DNA of 64,000 bases, taken from assembly GCA_019338205.1 (NCBI GenBank), contig GCA_019338205.1_4761.1, one strand, 5' to 3'. Under the pieces are notes generated by a model, which ran no database searches, was not told the origin of the DNA, and saw nothing but the letters and a program-made list of their open reading frames with translations. A program made the position numbers and the translations under genes. The DNA comes from a phage. This document shows, in pieces, positions 7,083-62,451 of this stretch (its first letter is position 1; each line of letters starts with the position of its first letter).

Positions 7083-7547
7083 ATGAAATGGGAAGTTGGT
7101 AAAACCTATGCGTGGAAAGATGTAAAAGATGCAAACCAATTTTTTAAATGGTATGATGTTGATTATTTGAAATATCTGAGATTACCGTTTAAAGTTGCGT
7201 CGGTTGATGCGAAAAAAGGATACGTGCGGTCTGTATATCTTCATGATGGAACTTATATGAGTTCAACCGATGTAGGTCTATCTTGTTGGTTTCTGGATCA
7301 TGACCGTAGCAGATTTGAAGAAATTATTATTCCAGAAGAATCTAAATTAATTGATCTTCTCAAGTTGGCGATGGATAATTATAAAATCCGCTTTGAATGC
7401 AAATCACATGCGGCTATCGGTGCTAACGCATTGCGTCATATCTCCAGTTTTGAAGAGTTGAAAGATTTTCTTGACAAAATGCCGGAAAGAGTGCAAGCTA
7501 TACAGGAAGCAGAGAAAGCATTAAACGAACTTGATAAAATCGGTTAA
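7083..7547 (+). CDS. hypothetical protein, repeat-domain family B2
   Basis: MKWEVGKTYAWKD N-terminus; C-terminal KDFLDKMPERVQAIQEAEKALNELDKIG tail. Confidence 0.65.
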   Translation: MKWEVGKTYAWKDVKDANQFFKWYDVDYLKYLRLPFKVASVDAKKGYVRSVYLHDGTYMSSTDVGLSCWFLDHDRSRFEEIIIPEESKLIDLLKLAMDNYKIRFECKSHAAIGANALRHISSFEELKDFLDKMPERVQAIQEAEKALNELDKIG

Positions 7548-7559
7548 GGGGAATATATT

Positions 7560-8384
7560 ATGAAATGGGAAATTGGTAAAACTTACACCTGGAAAGACGA
7601 AAACGCTAAAACTGAGTTTATTACTAACGGAGAAGGTGTTCTTTCTCCACTTAACAGCGATATTAGTGCAGCTATTGGTGACAAGCCATTTACCATCATC
7701 GAGATCGAGGGTAACGGTTGGATTGATGCAATAGAGCTAGACGGTGTTTATCATACGGCGAAAACTGCTACAGGAAAAGACATTTGGACTGCAACATATT
7801 TCTTTAGTCCATTCGATAGAAAATTCTTTCGTGAAGTTGAAGAAGTTCCCCAGAAATGGGAAGTTGGTAAAACTTATACTTGGAAAGATGTGAATGCTAT
7901 GACAGACTTCTGCCATTATGCTGAAAACGCATCTAACCTTAATTATGTTATTGCACGAGCAATAAATTATAGACCTTTTACTGTTAAAAATGTTCGTCCA
8001 TGTGGGCAAATTGATGTAATTGAAATTGATGGTAAAGACCATACTCTAATGAGCGCAACCGAAGATAGAGACCATAAAGGAACTAGCTGGTTTATTGATT
8101 CTGATAGAAAATTCTTTCGTGAAGTAGAAGAATTGGAAGTTATAACCACTGATTCTAAGATCGTTGGACAGTTGAAACGTCTGTTTAGTAGTCGTTACGG
8201 CCTGACAATGGTTAAATTTGGCGAAGCAAATGAAGGTAAAACCTTTGAACGTTTCGATGATTTCATTGCGGCACTTGACAAGATGGATGAAATCATGCAA
8301 GATCGCCAGAAGATTAAAGACCTTCAAGAAGACATTAAACGTCGTGAAGTTGAATTTTTGATTGGTAAAGAGCGAGGTTGGTAA
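7560..8384 (+). CDS. hypothetical protein with two tandem copies of the family domain
   Basis: MKWEIGKTYTWKD...RKFFREVEEV then QKWEVGKTYTWKD...RKFFREVEEL internal duplication; 274 aa. Confidence 0.7.
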   Translation: MKWEIGKTYTWKDENAKTEFITNGEGVLSPLNSDISAAIGDKPFTIIEIEGNGWIDAIELDGVYHTAKTATGKDIWTATYFFSPFDRKFFREVEEVPQKWEVGKTYTWKDVNAMTDFCHYAENASNLNYVIARAINYRPFTVKNVRPCGQIDVIEIDGKDHTLMSATEDRDHKGTSWFIDSDRKFFREVEELEVITTDSKIVGQLKRLFSSRYGLTMVKFGEANEGKTFERFDDFIAALDKMDEIMQDRQKIKDLQEDIKRREVEFLIGKERGW

Positions 8385-8385
8385 T

Positions 8386-8868
8386 ATGTTTGTTGCTGGC
8401 GTGACCTATCAGTGGAAAGATAAGAAAACGAGAGAAGATTTTGCAAACTTTAGCGTTGCAAATGATGCAATAGCAGAGTTTATAGGCGACCGTCCATTTA
8501 AAGTTATCGCATTTGATCACCATGCATCGGATGTTGATTATGTTTCTGCGATTGAAATTGATGGCACGGTATACACCTGCTGCAATGTTGATGATGTACG
8601 GGAATACGCGCACAACTGGTTTTTGCAATCAGAAGAACGTCATTTTAAAGTGGTATCGGCAGAACTGACCACTGATGCAATGTTGGAACAATTTTTCAAC
8701 AACTACGAAGTTTCTGTACGTCGATACGGTGAAGAGGAAGTATTTAAAATTGATGACTATAATCAGTTTAAACGAGTATTCGCCACTAAGATCCAACGTG
8801 ATATTGAACGCGAGAAGCGCATTAAGGAACTGGAAGAAGAACTAGAAAGATTAAAGGCTGAGAAATGA
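8386..8868 (+). CDS. hypothetical protein, repeat-domain family B4
   Basis: track ORF 8362..8868 trimmed to internal ATG; VTYQWKD...RPFKV...IEIDG.VYT...WF..EERHFKVV; C-terminal ELEEELERLKAEK. Confidence 0.6.
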   Translation: MFVAGVTYQWKDKKTREDFANFSVANDAIAEFIGDRPFKVIAFDHHASDVDYVSAIEIDGTVYTCCNVDDVREYAHNWFLQSEERHFKVVSAELTTDAMLEQFFNNYEVSVRRYGEEEVFKIDDYNQFKRVFATKIQRDIEREKRIKELEEELERLKAEK

Positions 8869-53725: not shown

Positions 53726-53733
53726 TATTTATA
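53726..53733 (-). promoter_or_regulatory. T4-type late promoter (TATAAATA)
   Basis: TATAAATA on the minus strand about 33 nt upstream of the gp36 ATG. Confidence 0.6.
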
Positions 53734-55068: not shown

Positions 55069-58000
55069 TTAGTCTTCCCAGATAAAGTCTACGGTACGAG
55101 TCAGATTATTGGCGATGATTTTAACATTACCAACTTTGATCCAATCACGAACCGTCATAGAGTTCATTAAACCACCTTCTGCAACTACTGCCCCGATTTC
55201 CTGAGCGGTAGGCTTATTCTGTTTGGTGTAAATTTCACCCCATGCGGTCCATTGACCACCAGTACCGGAACGGATATAATGTTTATGAGTACCATCGGGG
55301 GACCAAAGCTGGGTAAGCCCGTCCGCGTCAGTACCCCATTGCATCAGAGTACCGTTTTTCTTCTCTGGATAAGTTTCTTTGATGTTCTGGGTAGAAACGC
55401 GCATATTCCAGAAACCGATGTTACCAATTGCTGGTGCAGTAGTAGCGATCGCTTCATGCTTAACTGATACAATAGACGCATTATCCATAATCAATTTACC
55501 AGTCATTGTATCACCAGCATTCTTAACAAACTGACGATTAAGAACTTCGTCTGCGTTTCCTGCGTGGACGATCTGATATTTCTGTCCGGCAATCTCTGTA
55601 GTAAGCGTCTGATAACCTGCTTTGATGTTAACACTTCCACCGTGACCGATATTCAGCATACCATCTGGGGAACGAGTCATTGCCGGATTAGACTGGTCAA
55701 CAATGTATAAACCGCCTTGTTTCGCATACAGGTTGCGACCTGCAATAAAGTCTCTATATGCTGTCGCGTCGCCATTGTGTTTCATAGCAAAGGCGTAATG
55801 CTCAACGACTCCACCATCATTGATTTTACCGAAAGCGATAGCATCACTATCAACAACTTGCGCTGTTCCAGTACCACCAACGATAATAGACCATGAGTTT
55901 TTCATGCCTTCCGATGCGGTTGTGCCATGCAGAGTAATTCCGGTGTGTCCGTCAACTCCACGCTCACCCAACACCAGATGACCATTACTCGGATCATCAG
56001 TAGAGTTCTTAGTCACAGACAGAGTTTCAAAGGAACCAGATTTTAAACAATCTAAATCGCCCTTCACGTTAACGTTTTTATTAAACGTGTAATTGCTCTC
56101 AATGGTCTGGTCAATGTCTCTACGCGCCCATTTAGCGGCCTCTACGTCACCCAATTTCAAACTATTCTGAGCGGTTGCCATCTTAGGTAAGAAATTAGCA
56201 AGTGCGTAGTTTAATCCTTTAGGGGTAACAGCAATTCCGTCATGCTGGTAGTTTCCTAGTTCTTGAGTAGAACCTTGCAGATTGTCACCAACAAAACAGT
56301 TTTCCTGAGTAGCAACTTTCAAGAAACCACGACGAGCTTCGGTTGCTTTCCATGTATCCTCTGTCTGAACAACATATTTGAAGTTCTTCGGAGAAATTGC
56401 TACATTAGCCAGTGTACCAGCCACGGTTTCGGCTTGAGTACCAACGCGGATAATACCTTCTTTACCTTCGGTGGCCTTTTTGCCTTGCAGCTTTTTAGGA
56501 GTGATGATTGTAGTATCATCTTGACCAACATCCGTAAGCTGAGTAGTAGCAACTTTAGCGACACCTTTTGTGTCTTCGGTTGCATCAAGACCTCTGATCA
56601 TGATACCTTGCCACAAGTCACCAGTAAGGTTAAGCCCCTGAGTCGGGTCTACTTTCAAACGCTGTGCATTCTCAAAGAAGGTTTTAATCTTCAATGGGGT
56701 AGAAATGCGAGCATCGTCACGACCTGCGTCAAACTCTTCTTGAGTTGCAATTTCTGCTAAACCATGTAAAGTTTCCGTTGCGCGGCGAGTATGCAGCTTT
56801 TTAGGCGTGATGATATGGTTATCACTTTGACCTAAGTTTGTTTCTTCCTGAGTTGCAATTTCAGCGATACCAGTACGCGATTCGGTAGCAGTACGTTTCG
56901 TTAGCGTGCGAGTCGTGATTAGTAAAGCATCTTGCGGGGTTGATTCTGTAGCCCCTTGCACTTCCGCGTCAGTTGCCAGATACCCAACACCACGGGAAGT
57001 TTCGGTCGCCTTAACTTCGTTGATGTTTTGCGGAGTAACGATTTTAGCGTGGTCATTGATGTTATAGATCCCTGTACCAGCTTCACCCCTTAGAGCGGCA
57101 GCATTACCGCCTACCTGAACAATTTCAGCGATACCAGCAAGATCCTCTGACGCTCGACGCTCTTCTAACTTCTTAGGAGTGATTGCGCGGGTATCGTCTA
57201 AACCTTCGTTGGTTTCATGTTGAGTTGCAATTTCCATCACACCACGACGGTCTTCGGTAGCAACACAGTCATTTAACTTTTTAGGTGTAACGATAACATC
57301 ATCCAGGAAGCTGGAACCAGTATCTTGATGCGTTTCCGCTTGAGTTGCAATGCGAGCAATACCGCGTCGAGTTTCGTTGGCTGTTTTATTAGCCAGAACC
57401 TTTGGAGTCACCGCAACTTCGTCGCTAGGATTCTCTTCATGGTTTTTATTCGTTTCAGTCTGGGTAGCCAGTGCAATTACACCAACACGATCTTTACGAG
57501 TCGGATCTACTCGTTCTACAATCGGGTGAGCATGTGCCACCAACCAGTATTTCTTACCATCATCACCTTCTGAATAAGAGAACTCCAGATAAGGTACATA
57601 ATCATTTGCAGCGTTGAAAGACAATTCAGATACTCCCGTCCATGTATCGGTCCCATTGAATGGGTACTCGCTACGCTTAGGAAACTGAACCGTGTTTTTC
57701 TGCATAAGGATTTTTGTATCCTCTTCTGAGGTAATGATTCGGCAAGTCTGGTTTCCGCGCATATACTGCATAGAAACTTGAATACGATCACCCGGCTCGA
57801 CATTGGTCGGTAAAGTCAAGGTAACATCACGATCACCAAATACTGCAACATAGCTATTAGGGGATAAGCGAGTATCACTAATGATAGGATTCAAGCGAAC
57901 AGACTGATCACCATCCCACAAACGCCATAAGTTTTCCGGTTTGTCAAATATGAATACACCATGACCGCTACGCTTACCAACAATTTCTTTTACCCCGAAA

Positions 58001-58809
58001 GTACCGATCGATTGTTCTTGCGCACCTTCATGCACTTTTACCGTAACATGGTTGGTTGCAGTCAATCCGTCAAGATCGGTAGTCTGGATCATATCACCGT
58101 TATTAGCAAACTTAGGAAGCATCAAAACAATGTTACCCAAAGAACTACGGCGGAATACCTGATCACCGTTTTGCATCTGGATCGGGTCGATAGATGGTTG
58201 TGCATATACCCCGCGTGGCTCCGTTCCCGTCTGGTAAACGTGCCAGCGATTGCGAACAAAAATGAAGTAGTTCATTGCATAAGGGGTAGTACAGTACCAT
58301 TTGCGGTTGTTTACCACACCATTATGATAGAACTCATGACCAACCGAAAGGAACGATAACTCATTAACACCGCACTTGCCACCGATATCTTTTACTGTTA
58401 TAGTGTCGCCCTCTACAGGATTAGTAGGCATTGAGAATGTCAAGTTTGCAAACTGACAGTCCGCTGCGATATAGTCACCGGACTTTAAAGGAGTATCGCC
58501 GGAAGTTGCTGCAACATAATCCCAACGTGGGTCCGTGCGCAGTGCTTGCCATTTAGTCGGGTCAAAGTCACCTGCTGGTTTTGCGATATCTTCTTTTGCA
58601 TAATACGGACGGTTTTGATAGATTGTAGTGCCGTATTGATCATAACCGCGAGTTGTGTCATACTGAGTAATACCATTATGGTAATTGAAAAATTCAACGT
58701 TGACCGCATCCGTTGATGTGTTTTTATCTGCGTATGCTACATTGACGACCTTTTCATTACCAGCGTCAAAGCCAAAGGTGGCCTTGAAATGTTGAGAAAA
58801 ATCTGCCAT
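55069..58809 (-). CDS. 34: long tail fibre proximal subunit gp34
   Basis: 1246 aa; repeated ...ETRRGIARIATQAE... / ...TPKKL... modules and FPKRSEYP...YVPYLEFSY match remembered T4 gp34. Confidence 0.93.
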   Translation of the reverse strand: MADFSQHFKATFGFDAGNEKVVNVAYADKNTSTDAVNVEFFNYHNGITQYDTTRGYDQYGTTIYQNRPYYAKEDIAKPAGDFDPTKWQALRTDPRWDYVAATSGDTPLKSGDYIAADCQFANLTFSMPTNPVEGDTITVKDIGGKCGVNELSFLSVGHEFYHNGVVNNRKWYCTTPYAMNYFIFVRNRWHVYQTGTEPRGVYAQPSIDPIQMQNGDQVFRRSSLGNIVLMLPKFANNGDMIQTTDLDGLTATNHVTVKVHEGAQEQSIGTFGVKEIVGKRSGHGVFIFDKPENLWRLWDGDQSVRLNPIISDTRLSPNSYVAVFGDRDVTLTLPTNVEPGDRIQVSMQYMRGNQTCRIITSEEDTKILMQKNTVQFPKRSEYPFNGTDTWTGVSELSFNAANDYVPYLEFSYSEGDDGKKYWLVAHAHPIVERVDPTRKDRVGVIALATQTETNKNHEENPSDEVAVTPKVLANKTANETRRGIARIATQAETHQDTGSSFLDDVIVTPKKLNDCVATEDRRGVMEIATQHETNEGLDDTRAITPKKLEERRASEDLAGIAEIVQVGGNAAALRGEAGTGIYNINDHAKIVTPQNINEVKATETSRGVGYLATDAEVQGATESTPQDALLITTRTLTKRTATESRTGIAEIATQEETNLGQSDNHIITPKKLHTRRATETLHGLAEIATQEEFDAGRDDARISTPLKIKTFFENAQRLKVDPTQGLNLTGDLWQGIMIRGLDATEDTKGVAKVATTQLTDVGQDDTTIITPKKLQGKKATEGKEGIIRVGTQAETVAGTLANVAISPKNFKYVVQTEDTWKATEARRGFLKVATQENCFVGDNLQGSTQELGNYQHDGIAVTPKGLNYALANFLPKMATAQNSLKLGDVEAAKWARRDIDQTIESNYTFNKNVNVKGDLDCLKSGSFETLSVTKNSTDDPSNGHLVLGERGVDGHTGITLHGTTASEGMKNSWSIIVGGTGTAQVVDSDAIAFGKINDGGVVEHYAFAMKHNGDATAYRDFIAGRNLYAKQGGLYIVDQSNPAMTRSPDGMLNIGHGGSVNIKAGYQTLTTEIAGQKYQIVHAGNADEVLNRQFVKNAGDTMTGKLIMDNASIVSVKHEAIATTAPAIGNIGFWNMRVSTQNIKETYPEKKNGTLMQWGTDADGLTQLWSPDGTHKHYIRSGTGGQWTAWGEIYTKQNKPTAQEIGAVVAEGGLMNSMTVRDWIKVGNVKIIANNLTRTVDFIWED

Positions 58810-58843
58810 TATTGGGTCTCCTGTTATAATATGAAATTATTTA

Positions 58844-59425
58844 TTGTGTGAGGTGTTTGTTGTGGCAAAAACAAAATTTTGGGATATCGAGACACAGAAA
58901 GCGATAAAAGGTAGATTCTATCATGTCGATGGAATATTATACCATTTAAAGGATTCTGTAGCTGCTGGATTCCGAAAAGAAGGGTCCATATACAAAAAAG
59001 GTGATGTGGTAAGGGTATGTCTCCATAAAGAAGGATATTTATACTTTACATTTTACAACAATGATCATAAACTTAATCTGTTTGTACATAGAGTTGTCTG
59101 GTTTTTAGAGTATGGTACTCAGGTTGAACGAATAGATCACATAGACCAAGACAAAACTAACAATAGACCGTCAAACATGAGAGAAGCAACCGAACAGCAA
59201 AATCAGTTTAACGTCTCAAAGAAAAAGGCTTGCCATAGCAAATATAAAGGTGTATCATTATCACCAAGCAAGAAAAAGCCGTGGAAGGCGTATATTGTTA
59301 TCAATCGAAAGAATATACATCTAGGATACTTTGAGACAGAAGTTGAGGCGGCTAAGGCTTATGACCGTGCAGCACATGAAATAGTTGGCGAGTATGCTTA
59401 TTTAAATTTTCCAAAAAGAGGATGA
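58844..59425 (+). mobile_element. free-standing HNH homing endonuclease with C-terminal AP2 DNA-binding domain
   Basis: HNH motif HRVVWFLEYGTQVERIDHIDQDKTNNRPSNM; AP2 motif YKGVSLSPSKKKPWKAYIVINRKNIHLGYFETEVEAAKAYDRAA; TTG/GTG start, exact start uncertain. Confidence 0.85.
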
Positions 59426-59431
59426 TATATT

Positions 59432-59617
59432 ATGGTTAAAGTTGATTTGTCGGACGGTGCAAAATGGGTAGTTGACAGAATCCCTGATAGGGATTATAAT
59501 TATTTCCGTGCCGAATTAAACAATGCAATTCTGCGAGTTATGGAGAAGTACGGGTATGATCGTGAAGTATCTAACTCGTTTGGCGAATATGTTGTTGTGA
59601 GAGTGGAGAGAACTTAA
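59432..59617 (+). CDS. small hypothetical protein
   Basis: 61 aa; AAGAGGATGATATATT leader. Confidence 0.55.
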   Translation: MVKVDLSDGAKWVVDRIPDRDYNYFRAELNNAILRVMEKYGYDREVSNSFGEYVVVRVERT

Positions 59618-59619
59618 TT

Positions 59620-60567
59620 ATGACGTATAACCCGTTTACAAAAACTACCGCTACACTTAATGATTTCTTTGATGATCCAGAAGATAAACTACCGGAAGGT
59701 GTGCATTTGATTGATATGTCGCAGCTTATGATTGCTACTATCTCGCATACCTTTAAACCGGAAGATCCTATTAATGAAGGCATGATCCGTCATCTTATCC
59801 TTGACACCATGCGTTATAATATGACAAAATTCAAAGAGCAATACCCAATTACGGTACTTGCCTTTGATTCAAGTAAAGGTTACTGGCGACGTGATATCGC
59901 CCCTTACTATAAACGCAACCGTAAGGAAAAACGAGACGCAGATCCGCGTGATTGGGAGATGATCTTTGCTGCGATCAATAAGATCACCGAAGAGTTTAAA
60001 GAGAACATGCCTTATCACGTTATTAAGGTTGACAAAGTTGAAGCAGATGATATAATCGCTGTATTAACTAAAAAGTTTTCTGTCGAAGGTCGCCAGGTGC
60101 TGATCAACTCAGGTGATGGTGACTACACACAGTTGCACAAATACAAAAACGTGAAACAGTGGTCGCCAGTACAGAAAGCGTGGAAGAAATGCAAATATGG
60201 TAGCCCTTACAAAGACCTTATGGTAAAATGTGTTAAGGGTGACGCAAAAGACGGTGTAGCTTCTATCAAGTGCCGTAGTGATTTCATTATCTCACGACTG
60301 GAAGGGGAACGAGCTAAACCAATTGCAACCAAATGGTTAGAGCAAATTTTCGATGCCGAAGATCCAAAGTCTTTGATGACAGAGGAAGAAGCAAGACGTT
60401 TTGACGAAAACCGAGAACTTATTGATTTCGAATTTATTCCCGATAACATCGAATATGAAATTTTGTTAGCATGGGAAAAATCTAAACCAGCACCACGCGG
60501 TAAAATTTATAACTATTTTGTAACAAATGCGTTAGTTAAAATGTTGCAGAAAATTGGTGAGTTCTAA
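59620..60567 (+). CDS. rnh: RNase H (5'-3' flap exonuclease)
   Basis: GYWRRD, FSVEGRQVLINSGDGDYTQLHKYKNVKQWSP, GDAKDGVASIK, LIDFEFIPDNI match remembered T4 RNase H. Confidence 0.93.
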   Translation: MTYNPFTKTTATLNDFFDDPEDKLPEGVHLIDMSQLMIATISHTFKPEDPINEGMIRHLILDTMRYNMTKFKEQYPITVLAFDSSKGYWRRDIAPYYKRNRKEKRDADPRDWEMIFAAINKITEEFKENMPYHVIKVDKVEADDIIAVLTKKFSVEGRQVLINSGDGDYTQLHKYKNVKQWSPVQKAWKKCKYGSPYKDLMVKCVKGDAKDGVASIKCRSDFIISRLEGERAKPIATKWLEQIFDAEDPKSLMTEEEARRFDENRELIDFEFIPDNIEYEILLAWEKSKPAPRGKIYNYFVTNALVKMLQKIGEF

Positions 60568-60577
60568 GGGTTGACAT

Positions 60578-61174
60578 ATGAAAGAACTTGAATTAAAATA
60601 CTATGCACACTCACAAATTGGCGTCGAAACAATCTGTGATTTGTGGGTAGCAATGTATGACGGGTACAATCTAGTAGATCGTGCTAACACTCTAAAACAC
60701 GAATTTTATTATGATACCGAAGATCATGCACTACGTCGAAAAGGAATTTATGCTCGACTTGACGTTAATAGATCATTGATCATGGTCAAAATAGGTGATA
60801 GTGAATCTGGACTCTTCAACCGAGAAGAAATTACTTTTTCAACAACGGATGATTTCTATCACTATGTTGATAGTCTAGGCGTAAACTACGACCTTATCGT
60901 TCCTTTACTTCAAGTAATGACATACCGCAAGTCATTGACACTTGACCTTGAGGGTGCTATAGTGGAAATGTGCAAAGACACTTTCTATTATTGCAAAGTC
61001 GGCGAAAGAATGGGAGAGGCTCACTATGAACTTGAGTTCGAGTTAAAATCAGGTGATGAAAAAGCACTTGACATTATCCGAGAAATGATGCTAGAATATG
61101 TTGGTGACGATTTAAGTCCTAGCGAAATTTCAAAAGCTGAACGTGGTTTTCAATTAATGACGAAAGAGGGTTAA
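60578..61174 (+). CDS. CYTH-like (triphosphate tunnel metalloenzyme) domain protein
   Basis: N-terminal ExExK (MKELELKYY), Arg-rich strand LRRKGIYARLD, C-terminal YELEFELK; 198 aa; family assignment from motifs only. Confidence 0.7.
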   Translation: MKELELKYYAHSQIGVETICDLWVAMYDGYNLVDRANTLKHEFYYDTEDHALRRKGIYARLDVNRSLIMVKIGDSESGLFNREEITFSTTDDFYHYVDSLGVNYDLIVPLLQVMTYRKSLTLDLEGAIVEMCKDTFYYCKVGERMGEAHYELEFELKSGDEKALDIIREMMLEYVGDDLSPSEISKAERGFQLMTKEG

Positions 61175-61710: not shown

Positions 61711-62391
61711 ATGATCAGAAACCGTCTTCCTCCAGATCCAGATATGCGAATTAATGCTAAATCTGTGTATATGTTATATTGCATGATGAAAGCTCACATG
61801 AACGGGCGTTATGATTGCGTAAAATACAATTGGAGGATGCGGTTGTCTGATGCCGCATTCAATAAACGCAGAGATAAGTATTATTTCGCAAAATTAGCGG
61901 AAAAGTACAATCTAAGAGAATTATACTTCCTATTCCTAAGCAATCTGGTAGCTAATACCGATGCATGGGTAGGTGAAATCACTGATGTTGACGCATACGG
62001 CTTTTATATGGAATACATAGGAAAGATAACCGATGCAGCAACACGATTTGACGATGACATTAAAAGTCTGGTATACTTCTCCGAGAAACGCGGGGTTACT
62101 CTTAAAGAGCTAATTACATACAATCCCGCAACCGAAACTAGCGGTATCTTTAAACTACTGCAAAATCGGATTATATCGTTTGAGTCGTTTATGTTGTTGG
62201 ATAGCTTTCTAAATATAATCGATGAACACGACAAGGTAGCCAAAGACTTGATTTGGCAAACTTATAGTGTTAAAATGAAGGCGTACAAGAAACTACTTGT
62301 TATTGACGCCGCAAAAGCAAGAGCATTATTTGTTAAAGTAGTTAAAGAGTGTAAAGAAATATCTCAATTAAAAGCCGAAACAAATAGTTGA
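61711..62391 (+). CDS. 59: helicase loader gp59
   Basis: YMLYCMMKAHMNGRYDCVKYNW...YYFAKLAEKYNLRELYFLF matches remembered T4 gp59. Confidence 0.9.
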   Translation: MIRNRLPPDPDMRINAKSVYMLYCMMKAHMNGRYDCVKYNWRMRLSDAAFNKRRDKYYFAKLAEKYNLRELYFLFLSNLVANTDAWVGEITDVDAYGFYMEYIGKITDAATRFDDDIKSLVYFSEKRGVTLKELITYNPATETSGIFKLLQNRIISFESFMLLDSFLNIIDEHDKVAKDLIWQTYSVKMKAYKKLLVIDAAKARALFVKVVKECKEISQLKAETNS

Positions 62392-62415
62392 CAAGTAAAC
62401 TTAAATCTGTATAAT
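62388..62415 (+). promoter_or_regulatory. sigma70-type promoter upstream of gene 32
   Basis: TTGACA 62388-62393, 16-nt spacer, TATAAT 62410-62415. Confidence 0.6.
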
Positions 62416-62451
62416 AGTCTAGTAAATTAATCAAAAGAAGGAATAGTGAAT

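Follow-up and report, generated by a model that had tools for sequence, protein, structure and literature searches.

The 64,000-nucleotide stretch of phage DNA analysed here, hereafter referred to as the window, comes from an RB49-like coliphage of the Krischvirus group (RB49/JSE type) and contains, at the junction between gene 34 and the rnh cluster, a gene predicted to encode an HNH-AP2 homing endonuclease (HEG). In our estimation, with a probability of roughly 0.77, it is an active free-standing HNH(N)-AP2 homing endonuclease gene, which homes into the conserved empty intergenic site located between gene 34 and a 61-aa ORF. Judging from the sequence, the overall reading of a preliminary description of this DNA appears well founded in terms of domain content, free-standing position at the junction and recent mobility.

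The gene, its neighbours and its product

In the ORF list of the window, an intact plus-strand ORF spans 58844..59425, and the preliminary description took position 58844 as the start of the gene. A start at the GTG located at 58862 is better supported, in terms of the preceding GAGG, of existing annotations, of paralogues and of a deletion carried by one sublineage. The gene and its surroundings are organised as follows:

58862..59425, plus strand: coding sequence of the HNH-AP2 homing endonuclease (HEG), 187 aa, almost certain GTG start, TGA stop
58850..58853, plus strand: HEG Shine-Dalgarno GAGG, 8 nt before the GTG start, as read from the sequence
55069..58809, minus strand: gene 34, long tail fibre proximal subunit (phrog_972), the divergent left neighbour
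59432..59617, plus strand: 61-aa ORF (phrog_3594), conserved, between HEG and rnh, in genomes with and without HEG
59620..60567, plus strand: rnh (Pfam RNaseH_C and 5_3_exonuc_N)

The GTG at 58862 is the annotated HEG start in FL15, G37-3, PTE-Eco09, pEJ01 and ELT4, the start is likewise called there in metagenome contigs, and the N-termini of the paralogues align with it. Besides, a 1-nt deletion at 58856 present in an intact sublineage of the gene would break a frame started at the TTG. The TTG at 58844 was rejected as a start, since it is devoid of a Shine-Dalgarno, is not kept in the intact sublineage B, and corresponds to no paralogue start, the paralogues beginning at the equivalent of GTG 58862. 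Taken together, these sequence comparisons indicate that HEG almost certainly starts at GTG 58862.

HEG constitutes its own intergenic ORF, outside any intron or intein, and both flanking genes are intact in the genomes that carry it as well as in those that do not. The preliminary description had located a free-standing ORF at the divergent junction of gene 34 and the rnh cluster, which agrees with the flanking genes lying on opposite strands; as for its placement between gene 34 and rnh, the intergenic position and the divergent junction stand, but the 61-aa ORF separates HEG from rnh. Beyond rnh, a CYTH-domain ORF is followed by homologues of dsbA, gene 33 and gene 59. This CYTH-domain ORF (60578-61174, between rnh and dsbA) displays very divergent alleles among otherwise close relatives, the identity being ~54% for Skers, and ~80% at 60794-60994 for PTE-Eco09, FL04, G2248 and AV108. 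A tblastn search of the protein against the 64-kb window detected no other copy of HEG. Several recent GenBank records already name HEG orthologues 'homing endonuclease', and the gene is intact but unannotated in the KFS-EC records (L005, MH560358.1, 88514-89074). Two other roles were discarded, namely a terminase-associated HNH packaging factor, on the basis of the genomic context, and a CapR-AP2 anti-CRISPR repressor, given that no CapR domain was matched.

At the protein level, two domains follow one another:

59081..59206, plus strand: HNH_3 (His-Me finger) nuclease domain (Pfam; fold matches 1u3e)
59135-59140, plus strand: predicted catalytic D92-H93, invariant in the 40-sequence alignment
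59174-59176, plus strand: N105, invariant in the 40-sequence alignment
59201-59203, plus strand: N114, invariant in the 40-sequence alignment
59237..59389, plus strand: AP2 DNA-binding domain (Pfam; PDB sequence matches to WRI1, ERF096, TEM1 and AtERF1)

The HNH and AP2 motifs announced by the preliminary description are confirmed, both Pfam profiles scoring above their curated cutoffs (HNH_3, PF13392: E 1.6e-12, 47.3 bits for a cutoff of 24.8; AP2, PF00847: E 2.4e-8, 34.6 bits for a cutoff of 33.3) and the catalytic positions being conserved. In addition, the protein matches PHROG 99, 'HNH endonuclease', with an E-value of 2.6e-46, while a search of NCBIfam returned no match. Seven residues are invariant in the alignment of 40 homologues (D92, H93, N105, R107, N114, N117 and G130), and in the phmmer alignment with PDB 1u3e, D92, H93, N105 and N114 correspond to D74, H75, N87 and N96 of I-HmuI with identical spacing, these being the catalytic Asp-His pair, the structural Asn and the metal-binding Asn. 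CxxC zinc motifs are absent from the protein. The phage HNN-AP2 endonucleases having been described as an 'HNN' subtype (PMC2248197), the HEG product would, from its sequence, belong to this subtype, with an I-HmuI-type nuclease followed by a C-terminal AP2 domain.

The AlphaFold2 model built on the 40-homologue alignment (mean pLDDT 92.8, pTM 0.84) places strands at 91-93 and 106-108, then a helix at 111-116, corresponding to a beta-beta-alpha-metal fold, and, in the AP2 part, strands at 131-133, 141-147 and 150-157, then a helix at 160-174. Up to residue ~120, the best PDB match is I-HmuI 1u3e (109 columns, rmsd 2.7 A), and the C-terminus superposes on the AP2 domains of TEM1, WRI1 and AtERF1 with an rmsd of 1.2-1.7 A and 39-44% identity. 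From the conserved residues and the predicted fold, we infer that the protein would nick or cleave DNA in a metal-dependent manner.

Distribution, insertion and spread

The distribution of HEG was evaluated by megablast with positions 57800-60600 as query, which gave matches in 59 phage records. The whole query is covered in 9 of them (FL15, G37-3, two records of KFS-EC, PTE-Eco09, pEJ01, ELT4, PHB13 and FL20), and the 50 others give a two-piece match in which 548 bp are missing, so that HEG is absent from about 85% of the records. A second query, made of 105 bp across the empty junction of MIZ4, was found at full length in exactly those 50 records, RB49, Phi1 and JSE included, with 100% identity in 23, 99% in 19 and 97-98% in 8, that is, at least 99% in 42/50. 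The intact empty site itself, present in the same 50/59, is 74 bp long and highly conserved. Compared across relatives, the junction between gene 34 and rnh is hence polymorphic for presence and absence (9 records with HEG, 50 empty); far from occurring in all relatives with no empty site left, the ORF is missing from 50/59, where the site is conserved at 97-100%. Scans of IMG/VR for the junction yielded 0 contigs with HEG and 2 empty junctions. In a large protein database, one further cluster was identified (P0001, 96% identity), which occupies the same position relative to gene 34, the 61-aa ORF and rnh in metagenome contigs.

The alignment of 16 genomes, 8 with and 8 without HEG, delimits the insertion:

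58823..59413, strand not assigned: mobile cassette, 591 bp replacing 43 bp, the only stretch with fixed differences between genomes with and without HEG
59414..59425, plus strand: native pre-insertion sequence AAAAGAGGATGA, at the right junction, providing the last three HEG codons and the stop

The cassette consists of 6 substitutions at 58823-58837 and of 569 nt in place of 21 nt, the latter reading AAAATAAGGCTTGATAGAAAC in the empty allele. At the left junction, TATTTAT (58838-58844) is common to the alleles with HEG and to the empty ones, and the insertion leaves untouched the Shine-Dalgarno of the 61-aa ORF, which lies within the native AAAAGAGGATGA. As read from the sequence, the cassette sits exactly between the late-promoter core of gene 34 and the next ORF's ribosome-binding site, and we therefore propose that its cost to the host phage would be small. 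The locus illustrates how precisely a cassette can be accommodated with no damage to an essential tail-fibre gene. Rather than being a part of the cassette, the six substitutions at 58823-58837 could represent a co-converted donor flank.

The flanking genes contain no fixed difference, all of these being confined to 58823-59413. This bears on another way in which an active enzyme could spread, namely 'intronless homing', in which the cut would occur inside gene 34, the 61-aa ORF or rnh of HEG-less phages rather than at the insertion site. Such distant cutting is the rule for most of the characterised T4 free-standing endonucleases, for instance SegF, SegG and MobE (PMC2988022, Table 1), and close to the insertion, gene 34 has a strikingly dimorphic 5' end. 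Nevertheless, with no fixed position outside 58823-59413 in the 8 genomes with HEG versus the 8 without, there is no protective flanking polymorphism, and the gene 34 allele of the window is the same as in the HEG-less MIZ4, all of which makes cutting in a neighbouring gene decidedly improbable compared to homing into the empty intergenic site.

The dimorphism of gene 34 also documents the haplotypes on which the cassette resides. Across Krischvirus, the gene 34 5' end (57800-58600) falls into two allele classes, ~79-86% identical and separated by sharp recombination boundaries, the window belonging to the class of MIZ4 and phiS, unlike the other phages with HEG. At 58000-58400, the window is only ~80% identical to FL15, FL20, PHB13, L022 and L023, which all carry HEG, whereas it is 100% identical to the HEG-less MIZ4; the gene 34 allele of the other HEG carriers is common to the HEG-less JSE and AV108. 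Crossover points are located between 58630 and 58777 for the window and near 58400 for FL15, pEJ01 showing a patchwork across 58417-58498. The cassette itself is 99.5-100% identical among intact copies, which differ by 0-1 nt from the window across ~600 bp. According to these alignments, one and the same cassette is present on two or more deeply diverged haplotypes, and its co-converted flanks are short and variable.

A second cassette sublineage, 98% identical, differs by 10 substitutions and a 1-nt leader deletion. It is intact in the metagenome contigs L022 and L023, while in PHB13 and FL20 different single-A insertions break the frame independently, for which sequencing errors are possible. 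The dN/dS between the sublineages is ~0.38, calculated from only 10 substitutions, which are too few to interpret. Read in this way, the sequences follow the textbook pattern of homing endonuclease genes, with invasion, rapid horizontal spread and then decay. The recent mobile insertion claimed by the preliminary description finds its support in the presence of HEG in 9/59 records, in a near-identical cassette on gene 34 flanks that diverge by ~20%, and in the two copies that read as frameshifted.

Since HEG is found in only ~15% of the sequenced relatives, with two of its copies apparently broken, it may be past its active phase, and it could even be an inactive relic, a decaying former homing endonuclease gene that now moves as a passive indel through a high background of homologous recombination. 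Two of the nine database copies are frameshifted, the Shine-Dalgarno of KFS-EC is weakened (GAGG changed to GTGG), a minority of the relatives possess the gene, and the phage genomes of this genus are highly mosaic everywhere, beyond the HEG locus too. Ordinary recombination could therefore shuffle an indel such as the cassette, and one cassette could have reached different haplotypes by the recombination that is ordinary in T4-like phages. Against this relic explanation, the complete ORF, every catalytic residue included, is retained in at least 7 phage genomes and in two metagenome contigs, the copies differ by 0-1 nt over ~600 bp for flanks that differ by up to 20%, which implies very recent spread, and the frameshifts, as single A insertions, may be sequencing errors. 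A passive relic is consequently regarded as improbable, and an active gene as the better reading.

Another free-standing HNH_3 gene is polymorphic in these phages. It is 597 nt long, lies between genes 59 and 32, overlaps the end of gene 59, and was observed in MIZ4, G2494, Skers, pEJ01, ELT4, FL20 and a metagenome contig (L007, L008, L010, L011, L013, L015 and L022, at ~7430-8570). It is absent from the window, where the empty equivalent is at 62391-62446. The same intergenic position between 59 and 32 is the one where T4 carries segG.

Promoters at the junction and inside the gene

Three promoter-like elements are found around and within the cassette:

58822..58830, plus strand: putative extended -10 promoter TGTTATAAT (from scanning both the window and the empty allele for promoters)
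58838..58845, minus strand: gene 34 late promoter (window: AATAAATA; empty alleles: TATAAATA)
59036..59043, minus strand: perfect late-promoter octamer TATAAATA, antisense in HEG, 227 nt upstream of the gene 34 ATG

On the plus strand, the empty allele reads TTTTATAGT, which is turned into TGTTATAAT by two substitutions fixed in the genomes with HEG. This perfect extended -10 is probably the promoter of HEG, as far as the sequence tells; no other evident plus-strand promoter precedes the gene, because the DNA further upstream is gene 34, which is on the other strand. RB49-type phages are devoid of motA and of middle promoters (PMC1524935). A hairpin hiding the ribosome-binding site, as for I-TevI and Aeh1 mobE, was rejected, the fold of 58837-58920 being no better than those of shuffled sequences (z -1.19). 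AsiA has relatively little effect on extended -10 promoters. Such insensitivity might perhaps keep HEG expressed beyond the earliest minutes.

On the minus strand, the empty allele contains the octamer TATAAATA 29 nt upstream of the gene 34 ATG, and the left junction of the insert coincides with the exact upstream edge of this late promoter, leaving AATAAATA. In the late promoters of RB49 and of most other T4-like phages, A or T are equally common at -13 (Nolan et al., PMC1524935), and the core of the gene 34 promoter can therefore be considered as preserved. The idea that the insertion destroys this promoter was accordingly abandoned, the ATAAATA core being kept and an A at -13 being normal for the RB49 type (PMC1524935).

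Over the two strands of the 64-kb window, the octamer TATAAATA is found only 2 times and ATAAATA 3 times. For ATAAATA, 23.6 +/- 5 occurrences would be expected, which corresponds to a depletion of about 8-fold, and the three present are all on the minus strand, which is that of the late tail fibres, at 53726 (upstream of gene 36), 58838 (upstream of gene 34) and 59036 (in HEG). The internal TATAAATA is kept in both cassette sublineages and absent from three paralogues, and is therefore specific to this orthologue; this absence also rules it out as a feature of the family. The chance of finding the 8-mer on one strand of 569 nt is ~0.01-0.03 depending on the null, and that of the 7-mer ~0.1 under a shuffle null. 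As a functional late promoter, the internal octamer is suggestive only, on these sequence grounds. If active, it would fire late, add to the transcription of gene 34 and produce an antisense RNA over the 5' third of HEG.

From there, it may be imagined that the cassette rewires the divergent promoter region in such a way that it becomes hard to lose, with its own extended -10, which would also serve the downstream ORF, and with an antisense late promoter feeding the essential gene 34, the late antisense RNA shutting HEG off. We consider this proposal as rather unlikely. Promoters embedded in the T4 seg and mob genes, together with the idea that they favour retention, have already been described (PMC2988022); if true, the proposal would represent an antisense variant of the embedded-promoter retention known for T4 segG, segA, segE, mobB and mobC, and would involve no new principle.

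Downstream of HEG, inside the 61-aa ORF, a perfect sigma70 promoter is present on the plus strand at 59472-59500 (TTGACA-17-TATAAT, 12/12), the -10 of which is TACAAT in MIZ4. It is probably the early promoter of rnh. Its spacer contains the inverted repeat AATCCCT-GAT-AGGGATT (59479-59495), perfect in the window only, because G59490 is specific to the window.

The position of HEG in a promoter-dense junction leads to a further possibility, according to which the gene would be domesticated, either as an AP2-type regulator of the divergent promoters of gene 34 and rnh or as a nuclease directed against competitors or host DNA, its mobility being incidental. In both phages and plants, AP2 domains have been recruited for regulatory roles (bioRxiv 10.64898/2026.02.23.707548; PMC10448857), and the T4 intron endonucleases double as autorepressors (PMC2988022). 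Yet HEG is dispensable in ~85% of otherwise near-identical phages, its nuclease residues are intact, the gene appears to decay in some lineages, and it moves without any defence or accessory partner gene, so that a domesticated function seems very improbable indeed beside that of a homing endonuclease.

Proposed homing and comparison with known systems

In the reading that we favour, HEG would be expressed from the extended -10 promoter of the cassette, and its product would be a monomer, an I-HmuI-like nuclease of the His-Me-finger type whose AP2 domain anchors it to DNA. During a mixed infection with a HEG-less Krischvirus, the enzyme would recognise the conserved intergenic sequence between gene 34 and the 61-aa ORF of the empty allele; by analogy with known enzymes, the AP2 domain and the N-terminal region would bind this empty site and the HNN centre would cleave it. 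After the nick or cut in the empty allele, recombination-dependent repair by the phage would copy the 591-bp cassette, with variable lengths of flank, from the genome that carries HEG. The insertion would destroy the presumed target and thereby render the carriers immune. Enzymatic activity, the identity of the target, the choice between nick and double-strand cut and the timing of expression are all inferred.

As no fixed difference exists outside the cassette, the site of immunity would have to overlap the 43 bp that are replaced. The candidate target would thus extend over ~43 bp of the empty allele, around TTTTATAGTATGTTCATATTTATAAAATAAGGCTTGATAGAAAC. This target assignment is the least secure and weakest step of the proposal, because many T4 free-standing homing endonucleases cut inside a neighbouring gene. 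Regarding the type of cut, MobA, MobE, I-HmuI and I-HmuII produce a single-strand nick and nevertheless reach high frequencies of inheritance, possibly because a replication fork turns the nick into a break (PMC2988022); by analogy, our best guess is that the HEG protein makes a nick. The marker exclusion of neighbouring genes in co-infections, put forward by the preliminary description, would be a reasonable extrapolation from the T4 seg and mob genes (PMC2988022). In the literature, neither a biochemical nor a genetic test of cleavage or biased inheritance was found for any close homologue, and no HNH-AP2 enzyme of T4-like phages turned up whose biochemistry had been characterised.

HEG is sound but ordinary. 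Its class has been known for two decades, its enzymology is largely unexplored, and the scientific payoff would be modest, the value of the locus being practical. It constitutes an unusually clean natural system, with intact, empty and apparently decayed alleles in cultured coliphages, and it also offers a candidate target of ~43 bp and flanking markers able to show co-conversion directly.

Among known proteins, I-HmuI of SPO1 (PDB 1u3e) is the best match both in structure and in the sequence of the nuclease domain, its N-terminal beta region and its beta-beta-alpha-Me core aligning with those of the HEG protein. I-HmuI, a nicking enzyme, is however encoded in an intron and has a C-terminal helical/HTH DNA-binding region instead of an AP2 domain, and the two proteins are only 22% identical. 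In the same line, the C-terminal 60 residues of the HEG protein are 39-44% identical to the plant AP2/ERF proteins AtERF1, TEM1 and WRI1, with a near-identical fold, whereas these plant proteins are transcription factors without a nuclease domain.

As for the T4 mob (mobA-E) and seg genes, they are also intergenic cassettes which join the transcription programme of their host, sometimes with embedded promoters of the neighbours, and which spread with co-conversion of the flanks (PMC2988022). The promoters specific to the T4 genes are middle or late, whereas the sole candidate here is a sigma70 extended -10, the embedded late promoter being antisense. Within the His-Me classification, MobA-E belong to group 1 (PF01844-like), and HNH_3, I-HmuI and the AP2-linked homing endonucleases to group 2 (PMC5714182); similarly, 'mob-like HNH' and 'HNH-AP2' are separate categories in Table 5 of Petrov et al. 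(PMC2993671). Membership of the T4 Mob family was rejected for HEG, Pfam matching only HNH_3 and AP2, and the Mob proteins being in His-Me group 1.

The definition of HNH-AP2 endonuclease genes goes back to Magnani et al. 2004. In T4-related phages, such genes were reported as RB49ORF040c (Nolan et al. 2006, PMC1524935), then counted as 1 in RB49, 2 in JSE, 3 in RB43 and 6 in RB16 (Petrov et al. 2010, Table 5, PMC2993671). Further examples, from T4-related and other phages, are the RB16 'putative homing endonuclease 2' and the group I genes of Xp10, OP1 and Xop411 (PMC2248197). The nearest paralogues of the HEG product are ~52% identical, and T4-like phages carry them at other loci. In RB16 and related Klebsiella phages, the paralogue neighbours gene 46; in AV108, it is next to the tail-completion gene and upstream of gene 1, the phiS copy being equally similar; and in JSE, it adjoins the endolysin gene and vs.8, with an equally similar copy in RB49. 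In JSE (NC_012740.1; L019, 3215-3555), another annotated homing endonuclease gene is found ~1.1 kb downstream of the HNH-AP2 paralogue, past vs.8 and vs.6.

HEG resembles the known phage HNH-AP2 homing endonuclease genes in its two domains, in its HNN motif without CxxC, in its free-standing and intergenic nature, in its sporadic presence and, apparently, in its proneness to degeneration. It differs from them by its ~52% identity to paralogues found elsewhere and by its locus, between gene 34 and the rnh cluster. Since this locus is empty in RB49, Phi1 and JSE, the three genomes of this type covered by the 2010 survey, HEG represents a further member of the class at a position undescribed in the literature of 2004-2010.
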